A DNA stretch of 64,000 nucleotides from an uncultured Chthoniobacterales bacterium (GCA_964552635.1 CAZKHB010000015.1:15619-79618); one strand, 5' to 3'. Shown: positions 26,175 through 41,523, counted from the first letter of the stretch. The notes: generated from the sequence alone by a model not told the origin. Program-made: numbers and translations.

Positions 26175-27887
26175 TCATGCCGCGGCGGAAGGCGAAGCCG
26201 CGATCTCGGCATCGCACACGGGACAATACTCGTGCTCGCCGGCGAGGTAGCCATGGTGCGGGCAGATCGAGAACGTCGGGGTGATCGTCAGGTAGGGCAG
26301 CCGGAAGTTTGTGAACACCCGACGAATCAACTCCCCGCACGCACGGGCCGAGGAGAGCCGTTCGTTCATGTAAAGATGAAGCACCGTGCCGCCCGTGTAG
26401 CGCGTCTGGAGGTCGTCCTGATGCCGCAAAGCGACAAAGGGATCATCCGTCCAGCCGACCGGGAGCTGGGTGGAATTCGTGTAGAACGGGGCCTCCGGCG
26501 TCCCTGCTTGCAGGATACCCTCGAGATTCCGCTGGTCCATCCGCGCAAACCGGTAAGTCGCGCCCTCGGCCGGCGAGGCTTCCAAGTTGTAGAGGTGGCC
26601 GGTTTCCTCCTGGAACGCGACCATGCGGACCCGCATGTGATCGAGCACACGCAGGGCGAAGGCACGACCCCACGGCGTTGCGATGTGTTCCGAGTCCTTC
26701 GTGAAGTTCCGGATGCACTCGTTCATGCCGTTGATGCCAACCGTGGAAAAATGGTTCCGCAGCGTGCCCAGATACCGCCGCGTGAAGGGATACAGTCCGC
26801 GATCGATATGCTCCTGAATCACCCGGCGCTTGATCTCCAGACTCTGCCGCGCAAGCTCCATGAGGTGGTCGAGTCGCTCCAGAAGCGCCTCTTCGCGGCC
26901 CGAGAAAAGATACCCGAGCCGGGCGGCATTGATGGTCACCACGCCAATCGAACCGGTTTGCTCAGCCGAGCCGAAGAGGCCGTTCCCCCGCTTCAGCAAC
27001 TCCCGGAGGTCCAACTGCAACCGGCAGCACATCGAGCGCACCATGTTCGGCTTGAGCTCGGAGTTGAGAAAGTTCTGGAAATACGGCAGCCCGTACTTCG
27101 CGGTCACCTCAAAGAGAAGCTGCGCTGTCTCGCTCTCCCACGGGAAGTCCTCGGTGATGTTGTAGGTGGGAATCGGGAATGTGAACACCCGCTCGCGGGC
27201 ATCGCCGCGCGCCATCACGCGCAGGAACGCCCGGTTGATCAGATCCATCTCCGCACCCAACTCGCCGTAGGTGAACCCCGCCTCGCGTCCTCCGACATGC
27301 GCCGGCGTTTCCCGCAGGTCCTCCGGACAGACCCAATCGAATGTCAGATTCGTGAACGGCGTCTGAGTGCCCCAGCGCGAAGGCACGTTCAGATTGAATA
27401 CGAACTCTTGCAGGCCCTGCTCAACCTCCTCCGGCGACAATCGATCCGCCCGCACATACGCCGCCAGATACGTATCAACCGAACTGAACGCCTGCGCGCC
27501 CGCCCATTCGTTCTGCAGCGTACCCAAAAAGTTCACCATCTGCCCGAGTGCCGTGCGGAAATGCCGCGGCGGCGCCGACTCGACCTTGTTCGCCACGCCA
27601 TTGAACCCCTCCGCCAACAACTGCCGCAGCGACCACCCCGCGCAGTAACCCGAGAACATATCCAGATCATGAATGTGGATGTCCGCGTGCCGGTGCGCCT
27701 GGCCCACCGGCGGTGGATAAATGTGGTCCAGCCAATAGTTCGCCGTGAGCTTCCCCGCCGCATTCAGAATCATCCCCCCCAACGAATACCCCTGGTTCGC
27801 ATTCGCACTCACCCGCCAGTCCGTCCGACCGATGTATTCCTCAAGAACTTTCGCGGGATCAACAGACGTGGTCGGGATGTCGGACAT
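26175..27887 (-). CDS. nrdD: anaerobic ribonucleoside-triphosphate reductase
   Basis: 570 aa with a C-terminal glycyl-radical region (...RMDQRNLEG...) and zinc-ribbon tail CPHHGYLAGEHEYCPVCD. Confidence 0.85.
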   Translation of the reverse strand: MSDIPTTSVDPAKVLEEYIGRTDWRVSANANQGYSLGGMILNAAGKLTANYWLDHIYPPPVGQAHRHADIHIHDLDMFSGYCAGWSLRQLLAEGFNGVANKVESAPPRHFRTALGQMVNFLGTLQNEWAGAQAFSSVDTYLAAYVRADRLSPEEVEQGLQEFVFNLNVPSRWGTQTPFTNLTFDWVCPEDLRETPAHVGGREAGFTYGELGAEMDLINRAFLRVMARGDARERVFTFPIPTYNITEDFPWESETAQLLFEVTAKYGLPYFQNFLNSELKPNMVRSMCCRLQLDLRELLKRGNGLFGSAEQTGSIGVVTINAARLGYLFSGREEALLERLDHLMELARQSLEIKRRVIQEHIDRGLYPFTRRYLGTLRNHFSTVGINGMNECIRNFTKDSEHIATPWGRAFALRVLDHMRVRMVAFQEETGHLYNLEASPAEGATYRFARMDQRNLEGILQAGTPEAPFYTNSTQLPVGWTDDPFVALRHQDDLQTRYTGGTVLHLYMNERLSSARACGELIRRVFTNFRLPYLTITPTFSICPHHGYLAGEHEYCPVCDAEIAASPSAAA

Positions 27888-28075
27888 GGGGAGAAATCGG
27901 TGTTAAGCTCTACATCTGGTGGGTGGACTCCAAAAAATGTGCCGCATCTTGTGCACACGCCCGCCCGGACTTCCTTGATCGCCATCAAGCCCGGGTAGGA
28001 AAAAGCGGGGTCCTTTGTGCGAATCTCTCAGGAAGGCTTTGAGCCGGAACGCGGCTATCTTCTTTTCCTGACCCG

Positions 28076-28678
28076 TCAATCGTTCGACGGTACTACAATG
28101 GCTTCGACGGTGGCTTGTTTGCGCCCAAGCCGAGCAATACCAACAACACTAGCGATGAGAGCGGCAAAGTAGAGCGCAGCCCAAGTGGTCGGTCCCCAAG
28201 TTACCGAACCTCCAAAATCAGACAAGGAACCTTGGTCGTTCATGATTCGAATTGCAAAGAGGAGCGCGGGTGCGAAGAGCACCAGCGCGACTCCCTTCAA
28301 AATCTTCGAGACTGGGCGACGTATAACGATCAAAATGGCTGGCACGACGCTTCCAAGCAGAAGCGTGAACCATGCCACTGCTTTCTTACCAAAGAGTAAC
28401 CCTTCAATCTGCCGCTGTGCTTCCTGATGCACTCCGGCCATCGCTCCCAGTGCGGAGACGTCGAAGGAGATATTCAGAAGGGGAAAAAACAGTAGAATGA
28501 AGATGCTGACGTAAAACCCACCCAAAAAAGTCCTGCGGCCCGTAAGGTCGTCGGGTTTAAATGGGGAGAAGTTTATGTTTGGTTTGATGGTCTCGTTTGT
28601 GGTATTCATCGAATCGTTTGGGTTGGCGTGGAAATCTCGTAGCGAATGCTCATCTTGTTGCCGTCCGTCCCGACGCAC
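28076..28678 (-). CDS. hypothetical membrane protein (first gene of low-GC island)
   Basis: Four predicted TM helices; local GC about 53-58% against 65-70% in the flanks. Start uncertain (28678 or 28609). Confidence 0.45.
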   Translation of the reverse strand: MRRDGRQQDEHSLRDFHANPNDSMNTTNETIKPNINFSPFKPDDLTGRRTFLGGFYVSIFILLFFPLLNISFDVSALGAMAGVHQEAQRQIEGLLFGKKAVAWFTLLLGSVVPAILIVIRRPVSKILKGVALVLFAPALLFAIRIMNDQGSLSDFGGSVTWGPTTWAALYFAALIASVVGIARLGRKQATVEAIVVPSND

Positions 28679-28706
28679 GCCGGGGAATCACTGATCGGGC
28701 TTCTCG

Positions 28707-29348
28707 CTATGGAGCGCCCGGTCCGATGTCTTGTGTGAACTGCTGTCCACCATTCGCGAGAACGAGGGTGATTTTGTGAATCTTCAGATAGACCACCTTG
28801 CGTGTGGCGTAATTGATCGTTTCCTCCACGGATTTGTCGAGGGTGCCCGTGTATGTAATCGCGACGGTGCGTGACGACTTGAGAGCTGTGGCAGCCTTCT
28901 TGGCCTCCTCCAGTGGCACGGAGATATGGCTGACTTCTTGAGGGTTCGTGAACCGAACGACATAGTCGCCACGGAAAGGAATGAAGGAATCGGGCGCCGT
29001 GCCAGTCGGGAAAGCCTTTCTGGTGAAATCATAATCCTCAAGTTGCGTGCCTACGGTCACAGTGAAATCTTTTGTTTCCGCTGCCTCCTTGATGCGTCGA
29101 TCGATGACGGGGTTCAACTTCTCCAGAAATTCATGGCGCGAAAACTCGTCGCGCTGTTGGCGGTAGTCTGCACTCATCGACTCTGCGATGCGTTCTCGCG
29201 GCGTGGGGATGTCAGCCTTTACCTCGTAGAGTATGGCGACGGTCTGGTCTGTGATTTCACTTCCAGTGGCGATTCCCGCCAGTGCAATGCAAAGGAAGGA
29301 CGGCAACAGGCGGCGGGTCAAGTTCTCAAGGATGCTGATCATTCTCAT
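28707..29348 (-). CDS. hypothetical secreted protein
   Basis: MRMISILENLTRRLLPSFLCIALAGIATGSEI signal peptide; low-GC region. Confidence 0.5.
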   Translation of the reverse strand: MRMISILENLTRRLLPSFLCIALAGIATGSEITDQTVAILYEVKADIPTPRERIAESMSADYRQQRDEFSRHEFLEKLNPVIDRRIKEAAETKDFTVTVGTQLEDYDFTRKAFPTGTAPDSFIPFRGDYVVRFTNPQEVSHISVPLEEAKKAATALKSSRTVAITYTGTLDKSVEETINYATRKVVYLKIHKITLVLANGGQQFTQDIGPGAP

Positions 29349-29394
29349 CACACAAGCACGCGCAAAACCAACCGGCGGACGGACAGGCACAGGT

Positions 29395-29782
29395 TCAGAT
29401 TCCGCTGATCAGGACGAAGAGGAAAGCGACGCCGGCGAGGGTGAGAATTGCTGCATTGAGCAGAATCCCCGAAATGCCCAGTTTTCGGGCATTCATCGCA
29501 AAGGAAACGACTCCGAGCACCAAACCGACCAAGTGCACGATGAGGCCGAAAAAAGCCCATTGCCAGCAGTATCAGAAGATTCGCCCCTTCTCCGGGGGTT
29601 GCAGCAGCGAGGCATACGAACGCAAACGCGAGCAGGGGAAGGATACCGACCAGAGCGATGACGACAGAACAGACGCCGAAAATTCTCCCGCGCGATTTCG
29701 GGGTTGGTGGAAGAGGCGTCGGTGTCTGCACTGTGGGTGCGGGTTGGGGAACAGGCTCGTTGGGTAGTGCTTGATCACTCAT
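29395..29782 (-). pseudogene. small proline-rich/4-TM membrane protein gene (DUF4190-like) disrupted by +1 frameshift in A6/T6 homopolymer (29549-29554)
   Basis: Frame 0 reads MSDQALPNEPVPQPAPTVQTPTPLPPTPKSRGRIFGVCSVVIALVGILPLLAFAFVCLAAATPGEGANLLILLAMGFF, then R-rich junk. The -1 frame continues cleanly as GLIVHLVGLVLGVVSFAMNARKLGISGILLNAAILTLAGVAFLFVLISGI*. Deleting one T/A restores a 128-aa ORF. Confidence 0.5.
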
Positions 29783-29823
29783 CACTACAACCCGCGTGGA
29801 ACCAGGCGGAAAACGGACAGCGC

Positions 29824-30663
29824 TCAGTTCACGCCAAAATTCTGGACCCAGTAGGGGCCGCAGTTGCCGACGCCGAGGGTTTTGGCTTCGCGCCGAAGAA
29901 TGTTCTGTCGGTGGCCCGGGGATCGCATCCACATCGCGACGACTTCCTCTGGATTGGCTCCACTTTGGGCGATGTTTTCGCCTCGGGCCTTCAAGCTGAA
30001 GCGGCGCATGCGGGTTTGAGGATCGAGGGTGCCGGTTTTGCCGAGAGTTCGGTGATCAAAGTAGCGGAAGTTGGCCATGTGTGCCGCATGGAACCTCGCA
30101 GCGCGGGCGAGGTCCTCATCCCACTTCAGCGGCGGAAGGCCCCGCGCAGCGCGCTCGGCATTGGTGAGAGTGAGCACCCGCTTTTCTCTATGAACGCAGG
30201 CGGCACGAATGTCCTCCCGGCCGGTCGGAAGATCGGGCACAGGTGGCGCACGGAAGGCAACGTGTTGGACCGGCGTGCGTGAGCTGCGACTCCCGCAGCT
30301 CGGACGCTGAAGGGTCACCATACGCTCCCGTTGCGCCTGGGCTTCGACGAAGGCGGGAATGACTCCTGTGGCCTTAACATCCGAAGCGTTCACCCATGTG
30401 CTCCCGCTTGCCGCTCGGACCTCCGTACGGCCGTTCTCAGTGCGAAGGATGAGAACCGGGGTGCCAGGTTGCAGCACCGCGCTCCCTACAACCTCGCCGT
30501 GCAGGAATAGTGAAATGGGCGCTTGCGCGGTGAGCACGCCTCCTGTTTCCGCCCACACGAACAAGGGTGCCAAAAGCGTCAGAAGGGCTGCGATTTGAAG
30601 AGGTGCGTGACGCGTTAGTGCTCTTGAGCGGAAGTTTGGAAACTGGGCCACGACGTTTGTCAT
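29824..30663 (-). CDS. secreted SH3b-like + CAP/SCP (YkwD-type) domain protein
   Basis: Signal peptide LLTLLAPLFVWAETGGVLTAQA. SH3b-like GTPVLILRTENGRTEVRAASGSTWVNASDV. CAP domain LTNAERAARGLPPLKWDEDLARAARFHAAHM...MWMRSPGHRQNIL. Confidence 0.65.
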   Translation of the reverse strand: MTNVVAQFPNFRSRALTRHAPLQIAALLTLLAPLFVWAETGGVLTAQAPISLFLHGEVVGSAVLQPGTPVLILRTENGRTEVRAASGSTWVNASDVKATGVIPAFVEAQAQRERMVTLQRPSCGSRSSRTPVQHVAFRAPPVPDLPTGREDIRAACVHREKRVLTLTNAERAARGLPPLKWDEDLARAARFHAAHMANFRYFDHRTLGKTGTLDPQTRMRRFSLKARGENIAQSGANPEEVVAMWMRSPGHRQNILRREAKTLGVGNCGPYWVQNFGVN

Positions 30664-30684
30664 AGCGAGGGCGCCTCTGGAGCC

Positions 30685-31428
30685 TCAGTTCTGAGGACTT
30701 GCACCTTTACTCAGGGCGGTCTTCAGATCCTCGAAGCCGATTGCATCGGCGATTGTTTGGGCGGTAGGGTTCACGATTTTTGTTCCGCCGATCTCGATCG
30801 GAACGGGAATACCGGCTGGTTTTGCTGGGTTCGCACCGTGTTTCACCAGAGCCCTCACCAACTCGACCACCTTGTAACGATCGAGTTTGCCCCGCCCCTC
30901 GGCCAGCATTCGAACAATGCGGAGGAGCGGCGGTTCTTGGGGCATACACACACCTTGGTTCGGGTCCGCTCCCGCATCGAGCAGATACTCCAACTCACCC
31001 GGGCTCAGTTTTTCGGGGTAGCTGACGGCATTGTAGGACACGCGGGGGTCCGACAGACGATTTTGAACAAACTTCGGATCGGACCCACTTTCCACAAGGA
31101 GACGAAAGACGTCGATCCGGGACTCACTTTTGGGAACAAGATCCACAGCGGAACAGAGTGCATTCGTATTTAATCCATCCACAACAAACCCTGCGCTGGC
31201 GACTTCAGGGTGCTCCTTCAAACACGCTCGGATGGAACCAATTTCGCCCGACTTCAGGAGCTGAAGAAACTGCTCAACAGCATCGGGCGCTGCTGATTCA
31301 GCAGGCAGTGGTGCACACGCGAGGACGCTAACAAGAACCACGCCCAACGTAGCAATGCATCGTTTACGAATTGCAGCCAGAGGGGGTGAGGTATTCACAA
31401 TATGTAACGCGTGAGAACGTCTGCGCAA
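30685..31428 (-). CDS. secreted ankyrin-repeat-like protein
   Basis: Signal peptide followed by repeated helix-turn-helix segments such as LLVESGSDPKFVQNRL, YLLDAGADPNQGV and LVKHGANPAKPAG. Confidence 0.5.
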   Translation of the reverse strand: MRRRSHALHIVNTSPPLAAIRKRCIATLGVVLVSVLACAPLPAESAAPDAVEQFLQLLKSGEIGSIRACLKEHPEVASAGFVVDGLNTNALCSAVDLVPKSESRIDVFRLLVESGSDPKFVQNRLSDPRVSYNAVSYPEKLSPGELEYLLDAGADPNQGVCMPQEPPLLRIVRMLAEGRGKLDRYKVVELVRALVKHGANPAKPAGIPVPIEIGGTKIVNPTAQTIADAIGFEDLKTALSKGASPQN

Positions 31429-31473
31429 CGGACATGCTGTCTCGATTTTTTCATTCTCCCTGCGAAGTGGCCT

Positions 31474-31665
31474 TCACCGAACTAAACGGTTGCTTCTCGT
31501 GACGTGGCCCTCCGGGCAGACGTAACGCAAACCCTCCGTCGTGGCTCCCGGCTCATAGACTGCCGTTTTGCCGCATACGACGCAGGGGATTCCTCTTGTC
31601 GCTGGTTGACAGCCCGGGTGACCGAGTCCAAGGAATACCAGAAGGATAACAATGATGACGAGCAT
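31474..31665 (-). CDS. small signal-anchored zinc-ribbon-like protein (63 aa)
   Basis: MLVIIVILLVFLGLGHPGC then CVVCGK...YVCPEGH (CxxC...CPxxH). A truncated paralog lies at 36820-36912. Confidence 0.4.
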   Translation of the reverse strand: MLVIIVILLVFLGLGHPGCQPATRGIPCVVCGKTAVYEPGATTEGLRYVCPEGHVTRSNRLVR

Positions 31666-31759
31666 AGGTTGATCAGGTTGTTGATGATTCCACGAATCCG
31701 CATCCCTCGCGACGAGGACTCACTGAGATCGTGCGCAGAAAGCCCCATGAAACGGGCAA

Positions 31760-34700
31760 CTATTCCGTTTGCTTCGGGGGTTCGGCCAACGATTCTTTGG
31801 GAGAAAGCCCGAGATTCACGCGGATGAGCTTCCCGAGCAGCTCCGCGTTGATGTCGCCACCGATGGTTTTATGGCCCATCTTGAAGTCCTGGCGTGGTAG
31901 CATCCTCACGCGTGTGACATTTCCATTCGGCAAAGTCTTTTCCTGCACTGGGGCATCCGGAACGCTGCTTGTGATCAAGTCTCCCACTTCGTCATCGCGA
32001 TACTGGGCCACCCAATCCCAGGCCTCCTCACCTTTCAAAAATGAGTCGGTTCTCATTTGCCCATCTTGGTTCATCCAACCCTTTGCAGCCAAAAGCATGG
32101 TGCGTTCGAGTGTGGGAATCCCGCCGACCTCGGGCAAGAAGGCCTCCGTGGGGGAGATGAGCAAGAAACTGAGGGCAGGGTCATTGACGAGCTTCGGGTA
32201 GTCCCAGAGCACGAGTCCGGCCCCCAAAGAATTACCGACAATGAGAAACTTCTCGATCCCTGTTGCTTTCCGAATTTGCGACACGACGCTCTCTGCGATG
32301 CCCGGAAGGGGAAGCCTCACGGACTGATCACCGCCACGGTAGGTTTTAATCGTCTCGTTGACTTTATCAAATGGCGGTGCGTCGGGATAGCTCCAGAGGA
32401 AAAACGAGCACTGGTCAGGCAACAAATCCCCGAACCACTTCTCGTCCTTCAAAAGGGTGGCCACCATCTCTTGAGAACCCGAGTGACCGAAGAAAATCAC
32501 ACCAATGGGTCCTTTTCCAAGACGGGTAACCTCAAGCACCTGACCACTGACAGTAATCGGGAGCAGTGTGTGCAGACTGGTCGCGACCGCATCTCGTTGG
32601 CTTTGGGATCGCTGAACAGCTCCGGATGCCGAATTGTGTGACTGTTCTTTGCCCGTGGGACTGCTGGAATCTTGATTCCCGGAGCTCGTCATGCCTGCTG
32701 AGGATGTTGCAGGTTTTGTCAAAACAAAGGTTGTTTCCGTAAGTCCGCCTTCAGTGACTCTGTAGAATAGAGCAGAGGGTTTCAGCGGGTCGAAAGGAAT
32801 TGGGATTTCGAACCATTCCTTATAAGTCGCATAGGGTCTTTTCGGACAAACGACAATCTTTCCATCTTTCTGGAACGCCTGCCACTCTTGCAGTTCTATT
32901 TCCGCATCATCAACACTCTGAGATCTGCTACCTGACCAGATAGGAAAACTGCGGATGACCTCGCCGCTGGATTTGAAATCGTAAGTGTGTGCTGTGGCGT
33001 GGGTTCCTGTTTTCCATGGGCCGACAAGCTCACGTGGAACCCCGGGAGTCGAACCTTGCGACGAGGGAGGGCCAAGTATGGCACTGCCTGAAGGCTCCTG
33101 CCGGTTCCTTTCAGCTTTTGATTCTGCACCCTTGGTAAAGAAACCGACACGGCTGATCGAGCCTTGAAATGATTTCCCGTTCCGCGGGAAAGCAAAGAAC
33201 GACCGCCCCTCTCCTGCTTTCATCACAACGCCTGCGGGCAGTTCGGTGCGGGTCGTTTGACCATCCACGCTGAGTTCGAGCGCCCCATCTCTGCACTCGG
33301 CAACTATGTTGTGCCATGTGTCGGGTGCCGCAGGAGCGGTTGCAATGGTGTACCCGTTCTTGTGGTAAACGATGAAACTCACAGACCGCCGATCCGCCAT
33401 ATAATCCACTGCGAAAACAGCACAGCGAAGAACAGGAACCGGCCCATCCATTGAGGAGGAAGGGTTCATTCCCATCTCGATCCGGATCGGTTGGCCTTCA
33501 GCCCAGTTGAACTCATCCAACGAGCCGAGTGCTTGCTCGGTCCCGCCGTACAGCCGCAGACTGCGACCACCGGGCGCGGAGCGATCATCCTCAAGGGAGG
33601 CCCAATCCTTCAGTTTTGCCCCCTTCGTAGAGGCTTCGAGCCCCTTTGTTCCCGAGACACTTATCTTTGATGCGGAGGCTCGTGCTTTGCTGAAATCCCA
33701 TATCATCACTTCTTCACTCAGATCTCCGAGACCTGAATGGGTCGATCTCGCTACGGAAGGCTCCGCAAGCGCAGGCGGAGGAGCACCTGCCTCTTGGTCC
33801 GTAAAGCTCTGTGATGCCGGAGGGGCAGGGCCTGCTTCCGCTGCTGGTAGAGCTGGACTGGCTGCACTTCGTGTCGTCACCCGGATTTTTCCTATCGAGC
33901 CTGAGAAGGCTTGATTCTCGAAGGAGTGTGTTACAAGAGCTTTGGCGCTCCCGGCTCGCATGATGATGTCGCTGGGTAAGTTTTTCCGGACGGTTTCACC
34001 GTTAACAGTGATTTCAAGCAAGCCTTCTTTGTAGGCTGCTTTGACGTTGTTCCATGCGTCAAACGTGAGCTGAGTATCGACCTTCGAGTATTTGTTTGAC
34101 TCGTTCCAGACAAGGAATTGAAGAGTTCTTGACTCGGAGAGGAGGCGAAGCTCAAAAGAATTCGCGAACCGTAAAATGCGCACCGTGGATCTATTTGCCT
34201 CGGAGGGATTAAGGTCGATCTCGATCTGAACTTCGGCTCCTTTTTCGATATCGATCGAAGCCTTTGAAGAAAGTTTCTGATTCGCGGTTCCGTCGAAGCG
34301 CACTGCCCTACCGTTTGGTGCCTTCTCATCAACGACAACATTTGCCCAGTCAGGACCTTCACCAACCAGCGATCCCCCGAAAAGATCTGGCTCATTCGGA
34401 ACAGTGATCGAATCTTTGCTTTTACGTGCTTTGCTGAAATCCCAATCAGCGAGGGTGCTTCCGCCAGTAAAGGTCGTCCCACCTTTTGCCTCAGGTGCTG
34501 GAGCAGCCGAGACAGTGGTGGCAGCTGGTTTGGACGATTCCAACTGCTCGGTCAACTCAAGGACTGCGAGATCCACCCAGTTATCAAGATTCTTCCAACG
34601 GATGTGAACTTGGTGATCCTTCCTTTCCGCAATGGTGACGACTGTTCCTGGCGGCAAAGTCATCGTTCCCGCAGCTTTACCATCGACCTTCACCGTCATT

Positions 34701-34897
34701 GAAACGGAGACTTTCAAACGCGCCGCTTTGCCAGAAGACCTTTCCAAGCCTTGGGCCGGGGTAGAATGGGATACTCCAGATGCCACTTGCTGCTGAGCGT
34801 GAAGGTGAGGGCTGAAAGAAACTACCAGCAGCGTGATCCAGAGTTGGAATTGAGCTTTCATTGGGTCATTGGGTTTACGGAATGAGATCGGACTCAC
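31760..34897 (-). CDS. giant secreted protein: signal peptide, SH3b-like, two LamG-like (concanavalin-type) domains, C-terminal alpha/beta-hydrolase (esterase)
   Basis: Probable start at MKAQFQLWITLLVVSFSPHLHAQQ (34861). LamG repeats WDFSKARKS...RILRFANSFELRL... and MIWDFSKARASAS.... Esterase FFGHSG ... LIVGNSLGAG (GxSxG). GC about 47-52%. Confidence 0.65.
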   Translation of the reverse strand: MSPISFRKPNDPMKAQFQLWITLLVVSFSPHLHAQQQVASGVSHSTPAQGLERSSGKAARLKVSVSMTVKVDGKAAGTMTLPPGTVVTIAERKDHQVHIRWKNLDNWVDLAVLELTEQLESSKPAATTVSAAPAPEAKGGTTFTGGSTLADWDFSKARKSKDSITVPNEPDLFGGSLVGEGPDWANVVVDEKAPNGRAVRFDGTANQKLSSKASIDIEKGAEVQIEIDLNPSEANRSTVRILRFANSFELRLLSESRTLQFLVWNESNKYSKVDTQLTFDAWNNVKAAYKEGLLEITVNGETVRKNLPSDIIMRAGSAKALVTHSFENQAFSGSIGKIRVTTRSAASPALPAAEAGPAPPASQSFTDQEAGAPPPALAEPSVARSTHSGLGDLSEEVMIWDFSKARASASKISVSGTKGLEASTKGAKLKDWASLEDDRSAPGGRSLRLYGGTEQALGSLDEFNWAEGQPIRIEMGMNPSSSMDGPVPVLRCAVFAVDYMADRRSVSFIVYHKNGYTIATAPAAPDTWHNIVAECRDGALELSVDGQTTRTELPAGVVMKAGEGRSFFAFPRNGKSFQGSISRVGFFTKGAESKAERNRQEPSGSAILGPPSSQGSTPGVPRELVGPWKTGTHATAHTYDFKSSGEVIRSFPIWSGSRSQSVDDAEIELQEWQAFQKDGKIVVCPKRPYATYKEWFEIPIPFDPLKPSALFYRVTEGGLTETTFVLTKPATSSAGMTSSGNQDSSSPTGKEQSHNSASGAVQRSQSQRDAVATSLHTLLPITVSGQVLEVTRLGKGPIGVIFFGHSGSQEMVATLLKDEKWFGDLLPDQCSFFLWSYPDAPPFDKVNETIKTYRGGDQSVRLPLPGIAESVVSQIRKATGIEKFLIVGNSLGAGLVLWDYPKLVNDPALSFLLISPTEAFLPEVGGIPTLERTMLLAAKGWMNQDGQMRTDSFLKGEEAWDWVAQYRDDEVGDLITSSVPDAPVQEKTLPNGNVTRVRMLPRQDFKMGHKTIGGDINAELLGKLIRVNLGLSPKESLAEPPKQTE

Positions 34898-34988
34898 CCA
34901 TACATGCGCGGAATCGGGGGGCTAACGGACAGGACAATAGCCGAAAGCCACTTGTCCGTTTATACGAAATTTTTGCGCATGAGAAAGC

Positions 34989-36014
34989 ATGAGAACTTCT
35001 CAATATCTCTTCTTAGGCCTCATTCACAGGAGAAAGCCTTTTGGTCCTTGGTACGCACTTCGCAGCCTCTTTTGCGGAATGGTTATCGCTTGTGTCAGCA
35101 TGGCTGCCGGTTGGACAGCAGACTTTAAGCCAGCAGGGCGCTGGGAGGGTGCTGGGAAGGGAATTTTCGGGATGCGATACGAGATGCGGCTCGACTTGGC
35201 TGAAGATGGATCGGCCACATTGGTGTATGCCGATGAGGAGCCACCGCATACCCTGAATTCCGATTTTCAGCGCAACCTCATACGGGCCACCGGTCAATGG
35301 TCGTTCGCAGACGATACTGTGCATCTGGACATTTCCGTCCGAGAGTGGAAGCGGCAATTAGGAAACGATGAACCGGTTGATGTGGAGCCGACTGATGTCG
35401 GACTCTCATTGGATACAGCATTCAGTAAGCCAAAGCCGCCGCGTGGTCGTGGGATTAAGGACAGCGAACTGTTCCTCCAAAAAGATGGCACGCTACTGCA
35501 AGCGATGATGACCTTTACCGGTTCTTGGCCAATTGGGGCCGGCGCCATTCCTTTCGCTCGTATGGCCTCGGGGGTTAAGCTAAAACGGATCGACCAACTG
35601 AAGCAGCCCGATCCTGTCGGCGAGTGGATATTCGAAGATGCCGGTCGAGAGCTTTCCTTGTGCTTTTGGGAGTCCGGTGAGGGTGCTGGGGAGTTCTCAA
35701 CGCCGGATGGTGATGTCATCCAATTGGATGGAGAATGGGAGGTCATCACCGACGGACGGTGGAAAGATCACGTGCTATGGAGGGGAAGAGTGGTCTACTG
35801 GGCCAAGTCTGGCAACCCAGTGACACCCTCGGATGGACAGTTCGAATTCGTGCTATCGGTAGAACCGTCGAAACTCAGTCTGATCCGAGGCGGAAATCTC
35901 AAGGCTGCGGACGGAACAGAACTTCCGATCCACGGCCCGAACGGAAATGCCAGCCCGGTTTTCCGAAGGCAGAACGACCAACGCCCCACCCACCGCACAC
36001 CGGGGAATGCGTGA
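34989..36014 (+). CDS. hypothetical protein with internal two-fold repeat
   Basis: Only plus-strand gene in the island. Repeated modules GQWSFADDTVHLDISVREW... and GEWIFEDAGRELSLCFWES.... Likely start MVIACVSMAAGW. Confidence 0.4.
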   Translation: MRTSQYLFLGLIHRRKPFGPWYALRSLFCGMVIACVSMAAGWTADFKPAGRWEGAGKGIFGMRYEMRLDLAEDGSATLVYADEEPPHTLNSDFQRNLIRATGQWSFADDTVHLDISVREWKRQLGNDEPVDVEPTDVGLSLDTAFSKPKPPRGRGIKDSELFLQKDGTLLQAMMTFTGSWPIGAGAIPFARMASGVKLKRIDQLKQPDPVGEWIFEDAGRELSLCFWESGEGAGEFSTPDGDVIQLDGEWEVITDGRWKDHVLWRGRVVYWAKSGNPVTPSDGQFEFVLSVEPSKLSLIRGGNLKAADGTELPIHGPNGNASPVFRRQNDQRPTHRTPGNA

Positions 36015-36055
36015 TGTTCCTTCAGGCGAAGCTCTCGTCTCGCGTTTATTGACGA

Positions 36056-36613
36056 TCAACGCGACCTCACATACACCGTGCGCGACTCGATGTGGAGCCA
36101 GGCACCAATCAGAAGCAGGATGATCGCAAGGGCGACCGCGACGATGCCAAGAAAGTAGAGGATGGGTGCGAGGATAGCGCCGAAACCCGATGTGACAAGC
36201 AGAGCTGCTCCTCCGCGAAGCAGTCCCACCCGGCGGATGACGAACCATATGAGACCTCCAGCTGTAATGACGGCGGCGGCAAGAAGCAGTGTCCAGCCAG
36301 TTGTTTCTGACGAGCGCAGCGAGAGCGCACCGTAGAAGGCCCAGAGCGCGACACCCGACCAAAGACACGTGAACCAACGAATCGGCTTCCAGTCCCGGTA
36401 GGGTTCGTTACGGCCGCGAAGAAGGTGGTTGAGTCCATTGACGGTCATGACGAAGACGGCCACGAAAAGGGCGATCAATAGCAGGAGCGCCAAGACGACT
36501 CCGATTCCCACCCACAGCTTTTGCTCGGAGGAGATGGTCTCATAGAAAGCGGCAGCCTGTTCAAGGAGTGGATCGAGTTTCGCAATCCATACGCTGATAT
36601 AGTGTTCACTCAT
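36056..36613 (-). CDS. hypothetical polytopic membrane protein
   Basis: MSEHYISVWIAKLDPLLEQAAAFYETISSEQKLWVGIGVVLALLLLIALFVAVFV... with several TM helices. The track ORF reads in-frame upstream into a pseudogene remnant. Confidence 0.5.
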   Translation of the reverse strand: MSEHYISVWIAKLDPLLEQAAAFYETISSEQKLWVGIGVVLALLLLIALFVAVFVMTVNGLNHLLRGRNEPYRDWKPIRWFTCLWSGVALWAFYGALSLRSSETTGWTLLLAAAVITAGGLIWFVIRRVGLLRGGAALLVTSGFGAILAPILYFLGIVAVALAIILLLIGAWLHIESRTVYVRSR

Positions 36614-36669
36614 AGGGGTTAGGTTTGGGAATCGTGGAGGCACATCCGGCAACAGATCGGGCGTCAATG

Positions 36670-36765
36670 GGAACCGAAGTTCTGGACCCAGTAGGGAAAT
36701 CGGCGCTTGCGCGGTGAGCACACCTCCTGTTTCGGCCCACCCAAGCAAGGGTGTCAAGAGCATCA
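36670..36765 (-). pseudogene. internally deleted remnant of a CAP-protein gene paralog (signal-peptide region fused to last ~9 codons)
   Basis: 36699-36769 is about 85% identical to 30511-30581 (encoding WAETGGVLTAQAPISL). 36676-36697 matches the CAP gene 3' end (PYWVQNFG, 29845-29866), out of frame. Confidence 0.5.
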
Positions 36766-36819
36766 GATGGACAACGACGCGGGAAGCCGCCAGACCTTTG
36801 GATTTTCCCAGCAGCGGAG

Positions 36820-36912
36820 CTAGAACTTGCAGGGGATTCCTCTTGCCGATAGTTCACAGTCAGAGTGACCGAGTCCGAGGAAGACTAGAAGGATAACAAT
36901 GAGGACGAGCAT
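36820..36912 (-). pseudogene. truncated paralog of the small zinc-ribbon gene (30 codons then stop)
   Basis: Encodes MLVLIVILLVFLGLGHSDCELSARGIPCKF*. 36835-36930 is about 85% identical to 31580-31675. Confidence 0.5.
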
Positions 36913-36966
36913 GAGTTGACCAGGTTAGGTTTCGCAAGTTTCCGGTTCTCGTTGCTGCGAGAGAGT

Positions 36967-39900
36967 TCACTGGGGAAGAACGGGCTGGCTTGGATTCTCC
37001 GCGCGCTGGGTCGCCTCATACCGCCTGCGGGAGGATACGGGGTCGGGTTCCGGTTCACTGCTCCAGCGAAGACAGCCGATGGATCCGGCGAACGACCGAC
37101 CCTCGGACGCGTGGGCGGTCAGGAGTTGAGCAAGCCCGGCCTGCATCTTCATATCCTCGGGGAGAGGTTTGCGGACCGACTTCCCGTTGATCGTCAGCTC
37201 CAGAGCATCCTCTCGATACTCCGCGACGACCTTGTTCCAAGCGTTGAAGTCCACGCTGGCCATGACGACGGCACTCTCCTGGTGAGCGCGCCAAATGATG
37301 AACTCGATGCCTCCTTTTTCGGTTCGGAGGCGGAGTTCGAAGCAGTTCGCAAAGCGAACCAAGCGTCTGTTGGAGTCATTGGCATCCGAGGGGTTGATAT
37401 CCATTTCGATTTTGAAGTTTTGTCCTTCGGCCAGTTCGAACTGCCTGCTGGATGCGAGACGTTGATCGGGGGATCCAGAGAAGCGGACGGCGCGGCGTCC
37501 GGGCGCGGCGGGGTCGTCGACCACCTCGGCCCAAGCGGCGTTTTGACCCATCAGATTCACGGGAGCCTTGCCAACGCCCGGGATGATGAGTGAGGAACTC
37601 AACCTCTTTGCTTGGCTGAAGTCCCAACTGGCAATGACATTGCCGGGTTGGTGATCTCCATCGGCTTCCGAGAGAGGCTCGGGCGCAGTGTTAGATTTCA
37701 CGCTGGGAGTGGCCGTGCCGGGGAGGCTGTCAAACAGCGGGCGAACCTCCCGGAGGAGGAGCCAGTTGACGATGTCGGGACCATCAAAGGCGTTGCGGCC
37801 CTTGTAGGGTTCGGCGTCGTCCTCGGGGAGGTTGAGGGATTGTCGGGCGAGGTCGTAGGCGGCCCGGGCCGCTGTGGGGTCGCCGATTTTCAGGAGGCAG
37901 GCGGCGCGGAGGATGTGGATGCCGGGTTGTTTATTCGAAATCTCGGCCTCGCCCGACTCCGCGAGCGCTTGATCGAAGATCCGGAGGGCGTCCGTGAAGT
38001 TGCCGTCGCGGTACTCGACGAGTCCATTCATGAAGCGCGTCCAGTGAGGCGAGCTGTTTCTGAGCTCGGGCGCATTTTTGGCGGAGCGCGTCACGGCACA
38101 GCGGGCCAATACTTTGCGAGCACCGTCGATCTGCGCCGGGACTTCAACGGGGGTCAGAAGGGCGGTCAGGACCGCGCGCTCAGCGATATCCGGCCGCGTA
38201 GGCATGTTGTCGCAATTCGCCACGGCATAGGCGAGCATGCGCTGCCGTGTGCGACTGTAGGCCTCCGTTTTGCCGAACCAGACCTCGAGGCCTCCGAGCA
38301 TCATATTGACGAGCGTATCATCGTTCATCCACGGGCCACACTGCTGAAGTTCGGCGAGACCTTCCTGCGTTCGCCCGAAATGAAGAAGGGCGCGGCCGAG
38401 AAAACTCCGGGCGTGCGCAGTGCTGCGGTTCTCTTTTCCCAACACGCGGTCCATTCGCGGGACGAGATCTTCGCCGATCCGGAGAGCGCGGTCGGGCACT
38501 TTTGAAATGTAAAGCCGCTCCAGCAGTCGCGACTCGGAGGCGAGGGTGTCGGCGTGGTCGGGCCCGAAGATGCGTTTTCTCGCTTCCGAGAGTTCTTCTT
38601 GAAGCCGGATGGCATCGCGCCAGCCCCCGCTGCGCCAGTTGAAGAAGGCGAGGGTTTCCTTGTCTTGGATGGTGATGAAGTGGGTGGGGCCGTATTTCCT
38701 TTCGAGGATATCAACGAGATCTCTCTGCACCCGGATCGCCTCCTGTCCACGACCGGATCCATAGTATGTGTCGGCGAGTTTTCTGAGGACTTGGATCGTG
38801 TCGGCGCTGTCCGGTCCGGTGTTCACCCGGCTGGCTTCGAGTTCCGCTTCGAGGCTGACAATGCGCTGGCGGGCGCGCTCGTGGCGTTCCTCGTCCGTGG
38901 GTGGCGGACCAGAAGGCTCCGGGCGGTTGATGCGAGTTGGTGTCGGGCGGGGTTTTGCCCCGGTGGAAACAAGCAGGCTCTCGATCTGCTGCTGCAAAGC
39001 CTCCATCGTGCGGGGATCAGCAGTGCCCGAGCGGGTCCGCAGTTCGACCAGCCGCCGAGAAGCGGTCAGCGCCTCGGAGTAGTAGCCCCGGGCATTAAGA
39101 AGGTTGGCCAGACGAGTGAGGATTCCGAGGGACTGCGGCGAATCCTCCCCGGTGGCTTGAGTCGAAAGAGCCAGTGCCTCTTTGTAGAGTTCTGTGGCTT
39201 CCGGATAGGCTCCGAGGTTCATCTGAGTGTCGGCGAGCACGGCTTTGAGAAACGCCTTGCGCTCTGGTTGGTCGGCGGGCAAAGCATCGAGCTTGGCATT
39301 GGCCTTCTGCAGCGCCTCGGCAAGGGTGATGTTGCGGCTGTTTTTCTCGGGATCGGGAAGGCGAAAAACGTCGACGAGGAGTCCGCTGACGGATTCGGAG
39401 TTTTGCAGGGCGCGTGCCTTCTCGGACTCCGCTCTCTGGGATTCCGCAAGCAAACGCCGTGCTTCGGCCTCTGCGTGAGATGCGCGAATGGCCAGCAGTG
39501 CGCTGACTACTGTCGCTGTGACGAGGATGGCTGCGAGTAACCCTGCGATGAACAACCCAGTCCGATGCCGACGGGCGAAGGTCGAGAGCAGGTAGGCCGG
39601 AGTGGGAGCGCGGGCCGTAACCGGTTGCTGCGTGAGAAATCTTTCAACGTCTGCCGCAAACGCGTCGGCCGACGCATAACGCCGGTCGCGGTCTTTTTCC
39701 AAGGCCTTCACCGCCACCCAGTCCAATTCCTTCGTCAGGCTGACGGGAAGCGTTTCGGACGTGAGAACCCGAGCGGCTGCGATCTCAGCGCGGACTTCCT
39801 GCGGGAGCTTGCGAAAACGCAGCGACGGCCGGAGCGGCTCCGATTCCAAGACGGTACGGCGCAACTCGTCTACCCCACCCACGAGGAGGGCCTTCGGGTC

Positions 39901-40719
39901 GAACGGCGGAACACCGACGAGCAGTTCGTAGAGGACGACGCCCAAGCTGTAAACATCCGTGCGGGTATCGACATCTCGCCCCGCCAGTTGCTCGGGGCTC
40001 ATATAAGCGGGCGTACCAAGCCCAAGTGGGGCGATGGTCACCAGCGTGACATCCGCGAGGCGGCCCTGAACCGCCTTGGCGATGCCGAAGTCGATGACCT
40101 TCACCAAGGGGCCATCCGGTCCGTCCGTGACGAGAATGTTCGATGGCTTGAGATCGCGGTGGATCACTCCCTTCTGGTGGGCGTGGCTGACCGCCGAGCA
40201 AACACCGAGGAAGAGCTGCAGACGGTCCCGCAGAGTCCGGCGTCCGGCATCGCAATACTCCGTGATCGCCCGTCCCTCGACAAACTCCATCACGAAAAAC
40301 GGCCGTCCGCGCGATGTCTCCCCCGCATCAAATACACGGGCAATGTGCGGATGTTCCATCCGTGACAGCGCCTCGCGTTCGGCTTGGAAACGCGCGAGCA
40401 CCTCCGCGGTGTCGAGGCCGGCTTTGAGCACTTTCATGGCGACGCGGCGGCGAATCGGCGTCGCCTGTTCGGCCAGCCAAACAATGCCGAAGCCGCCTTC
40501 CCCGATCCTCTCGATAAGCCGGTAGGGACCAACTGAATCGCCCGGCTTTTCCTGGGAAACTTCCACGGAGGCCACGGGGTGGTTCGCCAGCGTGGGCTGA
40601 TCGCCAAAGAAGGCCTCGGCTTTCTCCGCATCGGTGAGAAGTCTCTCGACTTCGCCACGCAGCTCGGCGTCGCCCCCGCACGTCGAGTTGAGAAAGACAG
40701 CACGCGCGTCCGGCGACAT
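36967..40719 (-). CDS. Ser/Thr protein kinase with TM helix, TPR-rich region and C-terminal LamG-like sensor domain
   Basis: Hanks kinase motifs GPYRLIERIGEGGFGIVWLAEQ...AMKVLK...HRDLKPSNILV...DFGIAK...GTPAYMSPE. TM segment GLFIAGLLAAILVTATVVSALLAI. C-terminal VIASWDFSQAKRL...RLVRFANCFELRL... is homologous to the giant protein's LamG domains. Start could lie upstream (40875). Confidence 0.75.
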   Translation of the reverse strand: MSPDARAVFLNSTCGGDAELRGEVERLLTDAEKAEAFFGDQPTLANHPVASVEVSQEKPGDSVGPYRLIERIGEGGFGIVWLAEQATPIRRRVAMKVLKAGLDTAEVLARFQAEREALSRMEHPHIARVFDAGETSRGRPFFVMEFVEGRAITEYCDAGRRTLRDRLQLFLGVCSAVSHAHQKGVIHRDLKPSNILVTDGPDGPLVKVIDFGIAKAVQGRLADVTLVTIAPLGLGTPAYMSPEQLAGRDVDTRTDVYSLGVVLYELLVGVPPFDPKALLVGGVDELRRTVLESEPLRPSLRFRKLPQEVRAEIAAARVLTSETLPVSLTKELDWVAVKALEKDRDRRYASADAFAADVERFLTQQPVTARAPTPAYLLSTFARRHRTGLFIAGLLAAILVTATVVSALLAIRASHAEAEARRLLAESQRAESEKARALQNSESVSGLLVDVFRLPDPEKNSRNITLAEALQKANAKLDALPADQPERKAFLKAVLADTQMNLGAYPEATELYKEALALSTQATGEDSPQSLGILTRLANLLNARGYYSEALTASRRLVELRTRSGTADPRTMEALQQQIESLLVSTGAKPRPTPTRINRPEPSGPPPTDEERHERARQRIVSLEAELEASRVNTGPDSADTIQVLRKLADTYYGSGRGQEAIRVQRDLVDILERKYGPTHFITIQDKETLAFFNWRSGGWRDAIRLQEELSEARKRIFGPDHADTLASESRLLERLYISKVPDRALRIGEDLVPRMDRVLGKENRSTAHARSFLGRALLHFGRTQEGLAELQQCGPWMNDDTLVNMMLGGLEVWFGKTEAYSRTRQRMLAYAVANCDNMPTRPDIAERAVLTALLTPVEVPAQIDGARKVLARCAVTRSAKNAPELRNSSPHWTRFMNGLVEYRDGNFTDALRIFDQALAESGEAEISNKQPGIHILRAACLLKIGDPTAARAAYDLARQSLNLPEDDAEPYKGRNAFDGPDIVNWLLLREVRPLFDSLPGTATPSVKSNTAPEPLSEADGDHQPGNVIASWDFSQAKRLSSSLIIPGVGKAPVNLMGQNAAWAEVVDDPAAPGRRAVRFSGSPDQRLASSRQFELAEGQNFKIEMDINPSDANDSNRRLVRFANCFELRLRTEKGGIEFIIWRAHQESAVVMASVDFNAWNKVVAEYREDALELTINGKSVRKPLPEDMKMQAGLAQLLTAHASEGRSFAGSIGCLRWSSEPEPDPVSSRRRYEATQRAENPSQPVLPQ

Positions 40720-40801
40720 CTCCAGCGCTTCCAAAAAAATATCTTCTGCCGAACTCTTCACTGATTCCTCATGCGCTGTAGCGAGCCCAGAGCGGACACT
40801 G

Positions 40802-41350
40802 CTATTCGTCCGAGGTGAGTTCCCTGTAGAGCCAGACCTTCGCAAGCGTCCAGTGCCGCCGAACAGTCTTCTCATTGACGCTGAGAAGGGCGGCGATTTC
40901 GTTGTGTTCCATCCCACTGAAAAAACGCAACTTCACGATCTGGGCTTTCTGGGGATCCTCGGCCTCCAATCGATCTAGGGCTTCATGAACAGCGAGCAAT
41001 CGCTCGTCCGTTGCCGCCGAACCCACCTCGATGCCCTCCAGTGGCAATACATCAACCCCTGCCCCTCGCTTGACTGCAAGCCGCCTGCGTGCAGCCTCCA
41101 CGAGGATTCGCCGCATCGCCTCTGCTGCAGCAGCAAAAAACTGGGCGCGATCGCGCCAGCGATCCGGAGAACTCTTCTCCAAACGAAGCCAGACCTCGTG
41201 CACTAGGGCAGTCGTGTTCAGAGTGAGCTGGGCTTTTTCATGCACAAGCCGACCATGAGCCATCTGCTTGAGCTCCCTGTAGAGCCGCGTGATCAAATCC
41301 TCGCCCGGGATCTGGGTGAAATTGTCGAATCTTTCCGGTACGCCTTCCAT
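40802..41350 (-). CDS. ECF-type RNA polymerase sigma factor (STK-associated subgroup)
   Basis: 182 aa; sigma-2 region LVHEKAQLTLNTTALVHEVWLRL and sigma-4 region IVKLRFFSGMEHNEIAALLSVNEKTVRRHWTLAKVWL. Confidence 0.75.
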   Translation of the reverse strand: MEGVPERFDNFTQIPGEDLITRLYRELKQMAHGRLVHEKAQLTLNTTALVHEVWLRLEKSSPDRWRDRAQFFAAAAEAMRRILVEAARRRLAVKRGAGVDVLPLEGIEVGSAATDERLLAVHEALDRLEAEDPQKAQIVKLRFFSGMEHNEIAALLSVNEKTVRRHWTLAKVWLYRELTSDE

Positions 41351-41523
41351 GGACAATTGGCTCTCCGGGTTGCTTAGCCGAACACCCGTCCTCTGGATAT
41401 CGAAAACTGGAGAGCCTCTTCGGATGGGTGGCCCTGTGGCGCGGTGTTGAATCCCCACCCCGAATGCCAACGCGGGCGTCATTTCCCCTTGCGCGACGGG
41501 GGGTTTGGGGTTCCATTCGCGGC

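Follow-up and report, generated by a model that had tools for sequence, protein, structure and literature searches.

The gene of a 185-aa multi-pass membrane protein (TM185) in an uncultured Chthoniobacterales bacterium is separated from the kinase gene upstream of it by a 353-bp (~350-bp) spacer, and the question raised by this locus is how the spacer came to consist of degenerate pieces of two genes that also exist intact at a distance of 5-7 kb. The window, that is, the whole stretch of DNA that was analysed, is 64,000 nucleotides long; the spacer occupies positions 36614-36966 and is read on the minus strand. The two genes are a small zinc-ribbon gene and a gene for a secreted protein of the CAP family, and both reside intact in a region of lower G+C content that is referred to here as the island. 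The spacer is probably what is left of a cassette of these two genes, with its CAP part at the ancestral CAP-TM185 locus.

Composition of the relic

On searching the window by blastn with positions 36400-37100 as the query, three blocks of similarity were found, and the result was cross-checked by Smith-Waterman alignment, by a self-blastn of 27000-41500 and by nhmmer, all of which were concordant. The first block (36926->36829 against 31679->31582; 85.7% identity over 98 nt, E 1e-27) belongs to the small gene, the second (36770->36692 against 30586->30508; 86.1% over 79 nt, E 4e-21) to the signal-peptide region at the 5' end of the CAP gene, and the third (36696->36674 against 29856->29834; 21 of 23 positions, E 0.001-0.007) to the CAP 3' end. 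By nhmmer, the CAP 5' block reaches 36690-36792, which is equivalent to island CAP codons ~19-53, and a possible upstream extension of the small-gene block to 36949-36973 was obtained with low posterior probability only. The 23-mer of the CAP 3' block has the island CAP 3' end as its sole match in the window at up to four mismatches, and the other blastn matches of the relic block in the window are island genes only. All blocks lie on the same strand as their island matches, and the order small gene, CAP 5', CAP 3' is common to the relic and the island.

A reading of the sequence alone (the sequence-only reading) had described three island segments that recur here at about 85% identity. This recurrence is real by all of the methods named, and the self-alignment proposed there as a check gave similarity well above background (E 1e-27, 4e-21 and ~1e-3). 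The positions it gave are right to within a few bases, except for the third segment (29845-29866), which is about 10 nt off. Its view of the block as degenerate paralogous pieces of the small gene and the CAP gene is supported by the similarity blocks; the absence of the CAP body between the signal-peptide piece and the 3' end was borne out, and the 30-codon truncated ORF that it mentioned is present (36912->36820, MLVLIVILLVFLGLGHSDCELSARGIPCKF*). From the kinase gene to TM185, followed by the two intact paralogs, the features are:

36967..40917, minus strand: kinase-TPR-LamG gene, 1316 aa, the upstream neighbour, with its stop TGA at 36969-36967 (ORF list, Pfam)
36927..36966, minus strand: spacer after the kinase stop, with the left AAACCTAACC copy (36932->36923) (10-mer count; low-confidence small-gene extension by nhmmer)
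36829..36926, minus strand: remnant of the small zinc-ribbon gene, 14 nt upstream and codons 1-28 (85.7% over 98 nt)
36793..36827, minus strand: filler of 35 nt between the small-gene and CAP remnants (no island similarity above chance)
36692..36792, minus strand: CAP 5' remnant, signal-peptide h-region, cleavage site and first mature residues (...LLTPLLGWAETGGVLTAQAPISL) (86.1% over 79 nt; nhmmer)
36692..36696, minus strand: deletion junction with the microhomology CCCTA (comparison with island CAP)
36664..36696, minus strand: CAP 3' remnant, PYWVQNFGSH*, with the old stop TGA at 36666-36664 (21/23 to island)
36614..36663, minus strand: original CAP-TM185 spacer, with the right AAACCTAACC copy (36626->36617) (aligns with L009 9957-10000)
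36056..36613, minus strand: TM185, 185-aa multi-pass membrane protein (79% aa identity to P0002; no Pfam match)
29824..30663, minus strand: island CAP gene, 279 aa, intact paralog (Pfam PF00188, 8.7e-21)
31474..31665, minus strand: island small gene, 63 aa, intact paralog (ORF list; homologs P0020, L019-L021)

Of the small gene, only the hydrophobic N-terminus is kept, in a 30-codon ORF that ends at a new TAG, and the zinc-ribbon part is wholly gone. The relic retains ~35 N-terminal codons of the CAP gene together with its last 10 codons, and the CAP domain (island residues 164-266) is absent.

Integrity of the assembly

Paralogous sequences ~6 kb apart could mislead an assembler, and a collapse or a chimera between the two regions would then produce an apparent relic. 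The Logan assemblies SRR10912415-18 are, however, collinear with the window across the region at 99.89-100% identity, with no difference inside 36614-36966, and the ORF of 235 aa that runs from the relic into TM185 was found, like the island CAP protein, on contigs assembled separately from the four runs. The NCBI contig (79.6 kb) carries the same genes and is likewise identical across the relic. The copies, at 86% identity over less than 100 nt, are too diverged and too short to collapse, and the relic has substitutions of its own and a 3' end like that of the relative L009, discussed below. The probability of an assembly artefact is therefore negligible, and the worry about misassembly or collapse voiced in the sequence-only reading is dispelled by four assemblies that reproduce the arrangement.

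The CAP-TM185 locus in a relative

Among 5.8 billion proteins, TM185 has one non-self homolog cluster (P0002, 79% amino acid identity), and the small protein likewise has one non-self cluster in the protein database. One close relative, the locus L009, was found in the searched databases; two scans of genome contigs (with TM185 and with the nitroreductase) and one scan of metagenomes (with TM185) gave no further relatives. The gene order in L009 is polyprenyl synthase, Band_7, nitroreductase, CAP and the TM185 ortholog, where the CAP gene is intact (267 aa) and lies directly upstream of the TM185 ortholog, and where the nitroreductase gene is divergent from CAP, with 180 bp between the two. 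By blastn, L009 97-9016 has its collinear counterpart in window 50384->41480 (80% identity), and window 36696->35934 aligns with L009 9924-10693 at 81%; the latter alignment begins exactly at the internal junction of the relic (36696).

In a three-way alignment, the relic C-terminus, PYWVQNFGSH*, was found to be that of the L009 CAP (GPYWVQNFGSH*), whereas the island CAP ends in FGVN*. The position of the relic stop and the spacer that follows it match L009 and not the sequence after the island CAP, the spacer (36614-36663) aligning to L009 9957-10000 with one 6-nt indel. The start ATG of the TM185 ortholog of L009 coincides with that of the 185-aa form, and a 44-nt spacer lies between it and the CAP stop upstream. 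The island CAP and the L009 CAP share 70% amino acid identity, the next best CAP in the protein search reaching at most 49%, and the island CAP loses similarity to L009 at its last two codons.

Since the relic shares the C-terminus, the stop, the spacer and TM185 with L009, the CAP remnant is placed at the ancestral CAP locus. It is thus more likely that the parental copy is the one that decayed to the CAP remnant and that the island CAP is a daughter that survived, where the ancestral state is read from a single outgroup that is itself rearranged nearby. The earlier description of the block as a duplicate of island segments probably has the direction backwards, as the synteny with L009 puts the CAP 3' end, the spacer and TM185 at the ancestral locus. 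Neither a small gene nor an ankyrin gene was found by tblastn upstream of the L009 CAP, where the interval to the nitroreductase gene is 180 bp. As the small gene is absent from L009, the relic is the one witness to a former intact small gene at the TM185 locus.

Deletions and the read-through frame

The offsets between the relic and the island are 5247, 6184 and 6840 nt for the three pieces, which gives net losses of 937 nt and 656 nt. At the first of these, the 35-nt filler (36793-36827) replaces ~972 nt of the island copy, namely the remainder of the small gene, the ankyrin gene and ~18 CAP codons. The filler has no similarity above chance to island 31590->30600, 307 of 500 shuffles scoring at least as high as the observed alignment. 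The second junction lies in CCCTA (36692-36696), and the intact island end-points read TTTCACTA (30512-30508) and GGCCCCTA (29856-29852). The presence of CCCTA at both end-points is the pattern expected of a short-homology deletion, for which slippage is the putative mechanism.

The two CAP pieces are in different frames, with codon phase (mod 3) 1 before the junction and 0 after it, as 656 equals 3n+2. Owing to this frameshift, the signal-peptide frame passes the old CAP stop and by chance joins the TM185 frame (phase 1), and a read-through ORF of 235 aa (36056..36763) results, which is composed of TM185 and an open frame through the relic. TM185 is called as 185 aa by NCBI (P0001) and as 235 aa by the Logan gene caller. 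The earlier statement that the CAP remnant is in frame with TM185 is correct in that the ORF exists; the frame is, however, a by-product of the 656-nt deletion and is not conserved, the L009 ortholog having 185 aa. The 235-aa ORF is an artefact of the frameshifting deletion, and TM185 should be annotated as 185 aa. At the level of sequence comparison, the paralogy of the pieces, the loss of domains, the frameshift and the positional orthology of the relic 3' part are established.

Age and selection

The small-gene and CAP 5' blocks are equally diverged from the island (85.7% vs 86.1%), which fits a single duplication event. The synonymous difference between the relic and the island is ~0.22, with 10 synonymous and 13 non-synonymous differences; between the window and L009 it is 0.50-0.77 over 12 orthologous genes, among them the island CAP (0.65), and for TM185 by itself 0.30. 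As the divergence of relic and island lies below that of window and L009, the duplication is dated to a time after the lineages of the window and L009 had parted, and the protein search, with the L009 CAP at 70% and no other CAP beyond 49%, agrees with this. In the CAP 5' part, the distance to L009 is the same for the relic as for the island copy (differences at 8/9 and 9/9 third positions), so that the 5' pieces of the relic are unassignable to the resident gene as against a second copy.

The ratio pN/pS between the relic and the island is ~0.5 (P = 0.07 vs neutrality), and as the outgroup is saturated, the changes are unassignable to a branch. In the 16 codons of WAETGGVLTAQAPISL, a stretch that was picked after the data had been seen, there are 4 synonymous and 0 non-synonymous differences; codons 1-16 of the small remnant differ by 3 synonymous changes and 1 conservative one. 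The synonymous excess is weak overall and could stem from the island branch alone.

A central patch of ~250 nt in TM185 (36200-36444) is 87-95% identical to L009 in 60-nt windows and contains a perfect run of 47 nt, and 35948-36007, at the end of the 341-aa gene, was noted together with it; the rest of TM185 is 75-78% identical. This patch could be due to recent recombination between lineages or to constraint at the nucleotide level. The CAP 3' end and the spacer show ordinary divergence from L009 (58-67% in 60-nt windows). A change of history at the junction, considered on account of the low divergence of TM185, was rejected, the low divergence being confined to the central patch.

Origin of the relic

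The preferred reading of these data is the following. After the split from L009, a segment of ~1.9 kb would have been duplicated, containing the small zinc-ribbon gene and all but the last codons of the CAP gene, and probably the ankyrin gene as well. One copy would have stayed intact in the lower-GC island (31705->29834), and the copy before TM185, being redundant, would then have been gutted by two deletions. By the first (~0.94 kb net), the small-gene zinc ribbon would have been lost, together with any ankyrin gene and ~18 codons from the start of the CAP gene; by the second (656 nt at the 5-nt CCCTA), the N-terminal beta-rich domain and the CAP domain, together with a shift of frame that would have let the signal-peptide frame join that of TM185 to give the 235-aa ORF. 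The small gene and the ankyrin gene would thus once have been intact at the TM185 locus.

The sequence-only reading had pointed to a 10-bp direct repeat, GGTTAGGTTT, around the block, and this does bracket it, with exactly two copies in the 64 kb (36617 and 36923), which is mildly unusual (11/500 in a targeted shuffle). Together with the position of the intact copies in the island and the lack of the small gene at the L009 locus, the repeat speaks for an origin in which pieces of the island genes were copied in as a secondary, degenerate duplicate and the two repeat copies mark the insertion junctions. The right-hand ~80 nt of the relic (CAP 3' end, stop and spacer) are, however, collinear with the CAP-TM185 junction of L009 through the right repeat, and the relic ends in GSH* like L009 and not in VN* like the island. 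The right repeat copy lies 3 nt ahead of the TM185 ATG and agrees at 8/10 positions with AAACCGAATC in the TM185 leader of L009, and the left copy lies in the low-confidence extension of the small gene, where it stands opposite non-repeat island sequence in the nhmmer alignment. Around the block, neither terminal inverted repeats nor a transposase nor any ORF besides the gene fragments was found, and an empty site is absent from L009, in which the alignment is continuous from 36696 through the right repeat into TM185. Secondary insertion is largely refuted for the 3' part of the relic and quite unlikely as an account of the whole. The suggestion that the repeat is a junction duplication fails on the same grounds, as the right copy is ancestral leader, the collinear L009 sequence runs through it into the block and there are no terminal inverted repeats; nor does the proposed RBS-context motif hold, GGTTAGGTTT being found upstream of no other gene in the window. 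The repeat is read as a chance resemblance between the former leaders of TM185 and of the small gene. A perfect 10-bp direct repeat around a block resembles the target-site duplications of IS elements and MITEs; unlike such insertions, this block has no inverted terminal repeats, transposase or further copies, and L009 is homologous through the repeat without an empty site. An extra TM185 5' fragment at the kinase stop, suggested by short repeats (D1/D5), was also considered and rejected, since beyond the 10-mer the local alignment was no better than those of shuffles.

It has also to be considered that the relic is a chimera, in which a second cassette of small gene, ankyrin gene and CAP gene lay upstream of the resident CAP-TM185 pair and recombination at CCCTA fused its signal-peptide region to the resident CAP 3' end, so that only 36696 and the sequence downstream of it would be ancestral. 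Such an origin would explain why no small gene is present upstream of the L009 CAP and why the junction falls exactly where the similarity to L009 starts, and it agrees with the relic 5' piece being no nearer to L009 than the island copy is. It requires, however, an extra duplication step, and the signal-peptide region of L009 is synonymously saturated with respect to both copies, so that the data fit a simple internal deletion equally well; both models are compatible with the small-gene and CAP pieces being equally diverged. The chimera is given a small but real chance, and decay of a cassette whose CAP part was in place from the beginning is retained as the probable explanation.

Neighbouring genes and the island

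Beyond the relic, the region is made up of the following genes:

40917->36967, minus strand: Ser/Thr kinase-TPR-LamG, preceded by an ECF sigma gene (Pkinase 1.7e-41, TPR_12, Laminin_G_3)
34989-36014, plus strand: p341, 341 aa (ORF list, Pfam scan)
34897->31760, minus strand: 1045-aa protein with two LamG domains and a weak alpha/beta-hydrolase-like match (ORF list, Pfam scan)
31428->30685, minus strand: ankyrin-repeat protein (ORF list, Pfam scan)
29390->28707, minus strand: DUF4852 protein (ORF list, Pfam scan)
28678->28076, minus strand: 200-aa membrane protein (ORF list, Pfam scan)
27887->26175, minus strand: NrdD (ORF list, Pfam scan)

The G+C content of 28-37 kb is 51-57%, except for the bin with the CAP gene (30-31 kb, 61%), and that of the flanks 61-67%; no tRNA genes were found in the window. 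The block 28000-37000 encodes secreted and membrane proteins, mostly of unassigned function, and has no counterparts in the 20 kb of L009 that were compared. The island CAP protein is composed of a signal peptide, an N-terminal beta-rich domain and a CAP/SCP domain. Residues 59-109 of the 1045-aa LamG protein (34570-34720) resemble the N-terminal beta-rich domain of the CAP proteins and match L013 6115-6267 at 35% identity over 51 aa (E 3e-4); the secreted island proteins may have such a module in common. The ORF after the island CAP (29348-29932; 29395-29538, minus) looks frameshifted, with its N-terminal part (MSDQALPNEP...LLAMGFF) in one frame and a plausible transmembrane C-terminus in another; the 430-nt interval after the island CAP has no Logan gene call, and the four assemblies are identical to the window there. 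A relationship of this ORF (29348-29800) to TM185 was rejected, as the only match is one of 11 nt (ATGAGTGA-CA), which 107 of 500 shuffles equalled, and no tblastx signal was obtained.

The island small gene encodes a hydrophobic N-terminus followed by a CxxC...CPxGH zinc ribbon, and its homologs are P0020 (64% identity) and the JGI loci L019-L021. In this family, the C-terminal CxxC...CPxGH ribbon is the part conserved across distant genomes. In L018 (4270-4461), the zinc-ribbon module (CxxCGKTAVY...EGLRYVCPxGHVTRSNRLVR) shows 83% protein and 76% nucleotide identity, and genes for a TrwC relaxase, a giant PKD protein and an RHS protein lie on that contig; in L020 (603-1262) the ribbon is the C-terminal module of a 219-aa GYF-like membrane protein.

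Distant CAP homologs adjoin ECF-sigma/kinase/LamG modules (L013), p341-like genes (L016) and ankyrin genes (L010/L011), which makes this a recurrent neighbourhood. An ECF sigma (PF07638)-Ser/Thr kinase-TPR-LamG module occurs near a CAP gene and a gene for a small downstream protein in L013 (1-7351), in the window (36056-41351) and in L009 (9153-18972), and the orientation of the module relative to CAP differs among these three distantly related contigs, being co-directional, convergent or divergent. The window kinase (1316 aa) is 72% identical to the L009 kinase over aa 3-1023 of the latter and has, in addition, a LamG fused to its C-terminus (36967-37698 against L009 12761-13417). In L009, the LamG (39% identity) sits in a separate gene downstream of the kinase, which encodes a 1039-aa GYF-TM-LamG-RCC1/WD40 protein; the window lacks the RCC1/WD40 part. 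The last 34 residues of this 1039-aa protein are 76% identical to the C-terminus of p341 (L009 10616-10717 against window 35910-36011), and full-length homologs of p341 adjoin CAP genes elsewhere (L016). L009 appears to have been rearranged into a p341-like gene.

Possible present function

No Rfam match was found in 36614-36966 at E<=1, and the predicted fold of the relic (MFE -100.7 against a shuffle mean of -102.7, z = +0.40) is not unusually stable. Scans for sigma-70-like promoters and intrinsic terminators gave none within the relic, and one for an ECF-like GGAAC-N15-18-CGT motif gave no match there. The signal peptide is truncated and has no charged n-region. The relic is now probably only a spacer or 5' leader for TM185, and its apparent lack of function is read from the sequence. 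Exaptation of the remnant would mean that it serves as a 30-residue hydrophobic mini-protein or uORF that controls TM185, that it extends TM185 at the N-terminus, or that it acts as a promoter or leader. In its favour, both reading frames are uninterrupted, the start codon of the small remnant is preserved with 14 nt ahead of it, few non-synonymous changes are seen in the first 16 codons of this remnant (1, conservative) and in WAETGGVLTAQAPISL (none), and the 235-aa form is the one given by the Logan gene caller. The L009 ortholog, however, lacks the extension and starts at the ATG of the 185-aa form, the truncated signal peptide is without a charged n-region, the synonymous excess was chosen post hoc and could be explained by constraint on the island copy alone, and the promoter, terminator, ECF-motif, Rfam and folding scans are all without signal in the relic. 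Exaptation is hence considered very unlikely, and it would be just as improbable that the 30-codon ORF and/or the TM185 extension is translated and couples TM185 expression to the upstream ECF-sigma/kinase operon. If this were true, pseudogene fragments would have been recruited as a leader or uORF after the CAP-TM185 operon had lost its first gene.

Relation to known systems and significance

Gene relics in the spacers of Rickettsia and Mycobacterium leprae are the classic description of bacterial pseudogene remnants, and both gene remnants after duplication and loss and frameshifting deletions at short homologies are well-known phenomena. As in those spacers, the relic shows short similarity to an intact gene, the deletion of the catalytic domain, a frameshift and an intact ortholog in a relative; unlike in those organisms, the genome here is not a reduced one, and the loss followed a local duplication, with an intact paralog 6 kb away supplying the function. 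The locus is also similar to gene relocation by duplication and differential loss, in that the copy at the ancestral position is destroyed and the one at the new position survives, but the direction is read here from a single outgroup, in which the CAP gene but no small gene was found. The junction within a 5-nt CCCTA present at both paralog end-points conforms to deletion at microhomologies (by slippage or illegitimate recombination), a mechanism proposed here from the sequence, whereas the first deletion has 35 nt of unexplained filler and no clean junction. The remnant derives from a gene of the secreted CAP/SCP/YkwD family (PF00188), of which the signal peptide and the last 10 codons are left, but it differs from such genes in being without any CAP domain.

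The relic is regarded as an ordinary pseudogene remnant, the sole twist being that it was the copy in the ancestral place that was destroyed, and no new biological principle is involved. For annotation, the spacer is to be flagged as a pseudogene remnant of the CAP gene and the small gene. For the local history, a conserved pair of a CAP gene and a membrane-protein gene would have stood beside an ECF-sigma/Ser-Thr-kinase/LamG module in a region that has been rearranged; the cassette would have been duplicated into a lower-GC island of secreted proteins, and its original copy lost.
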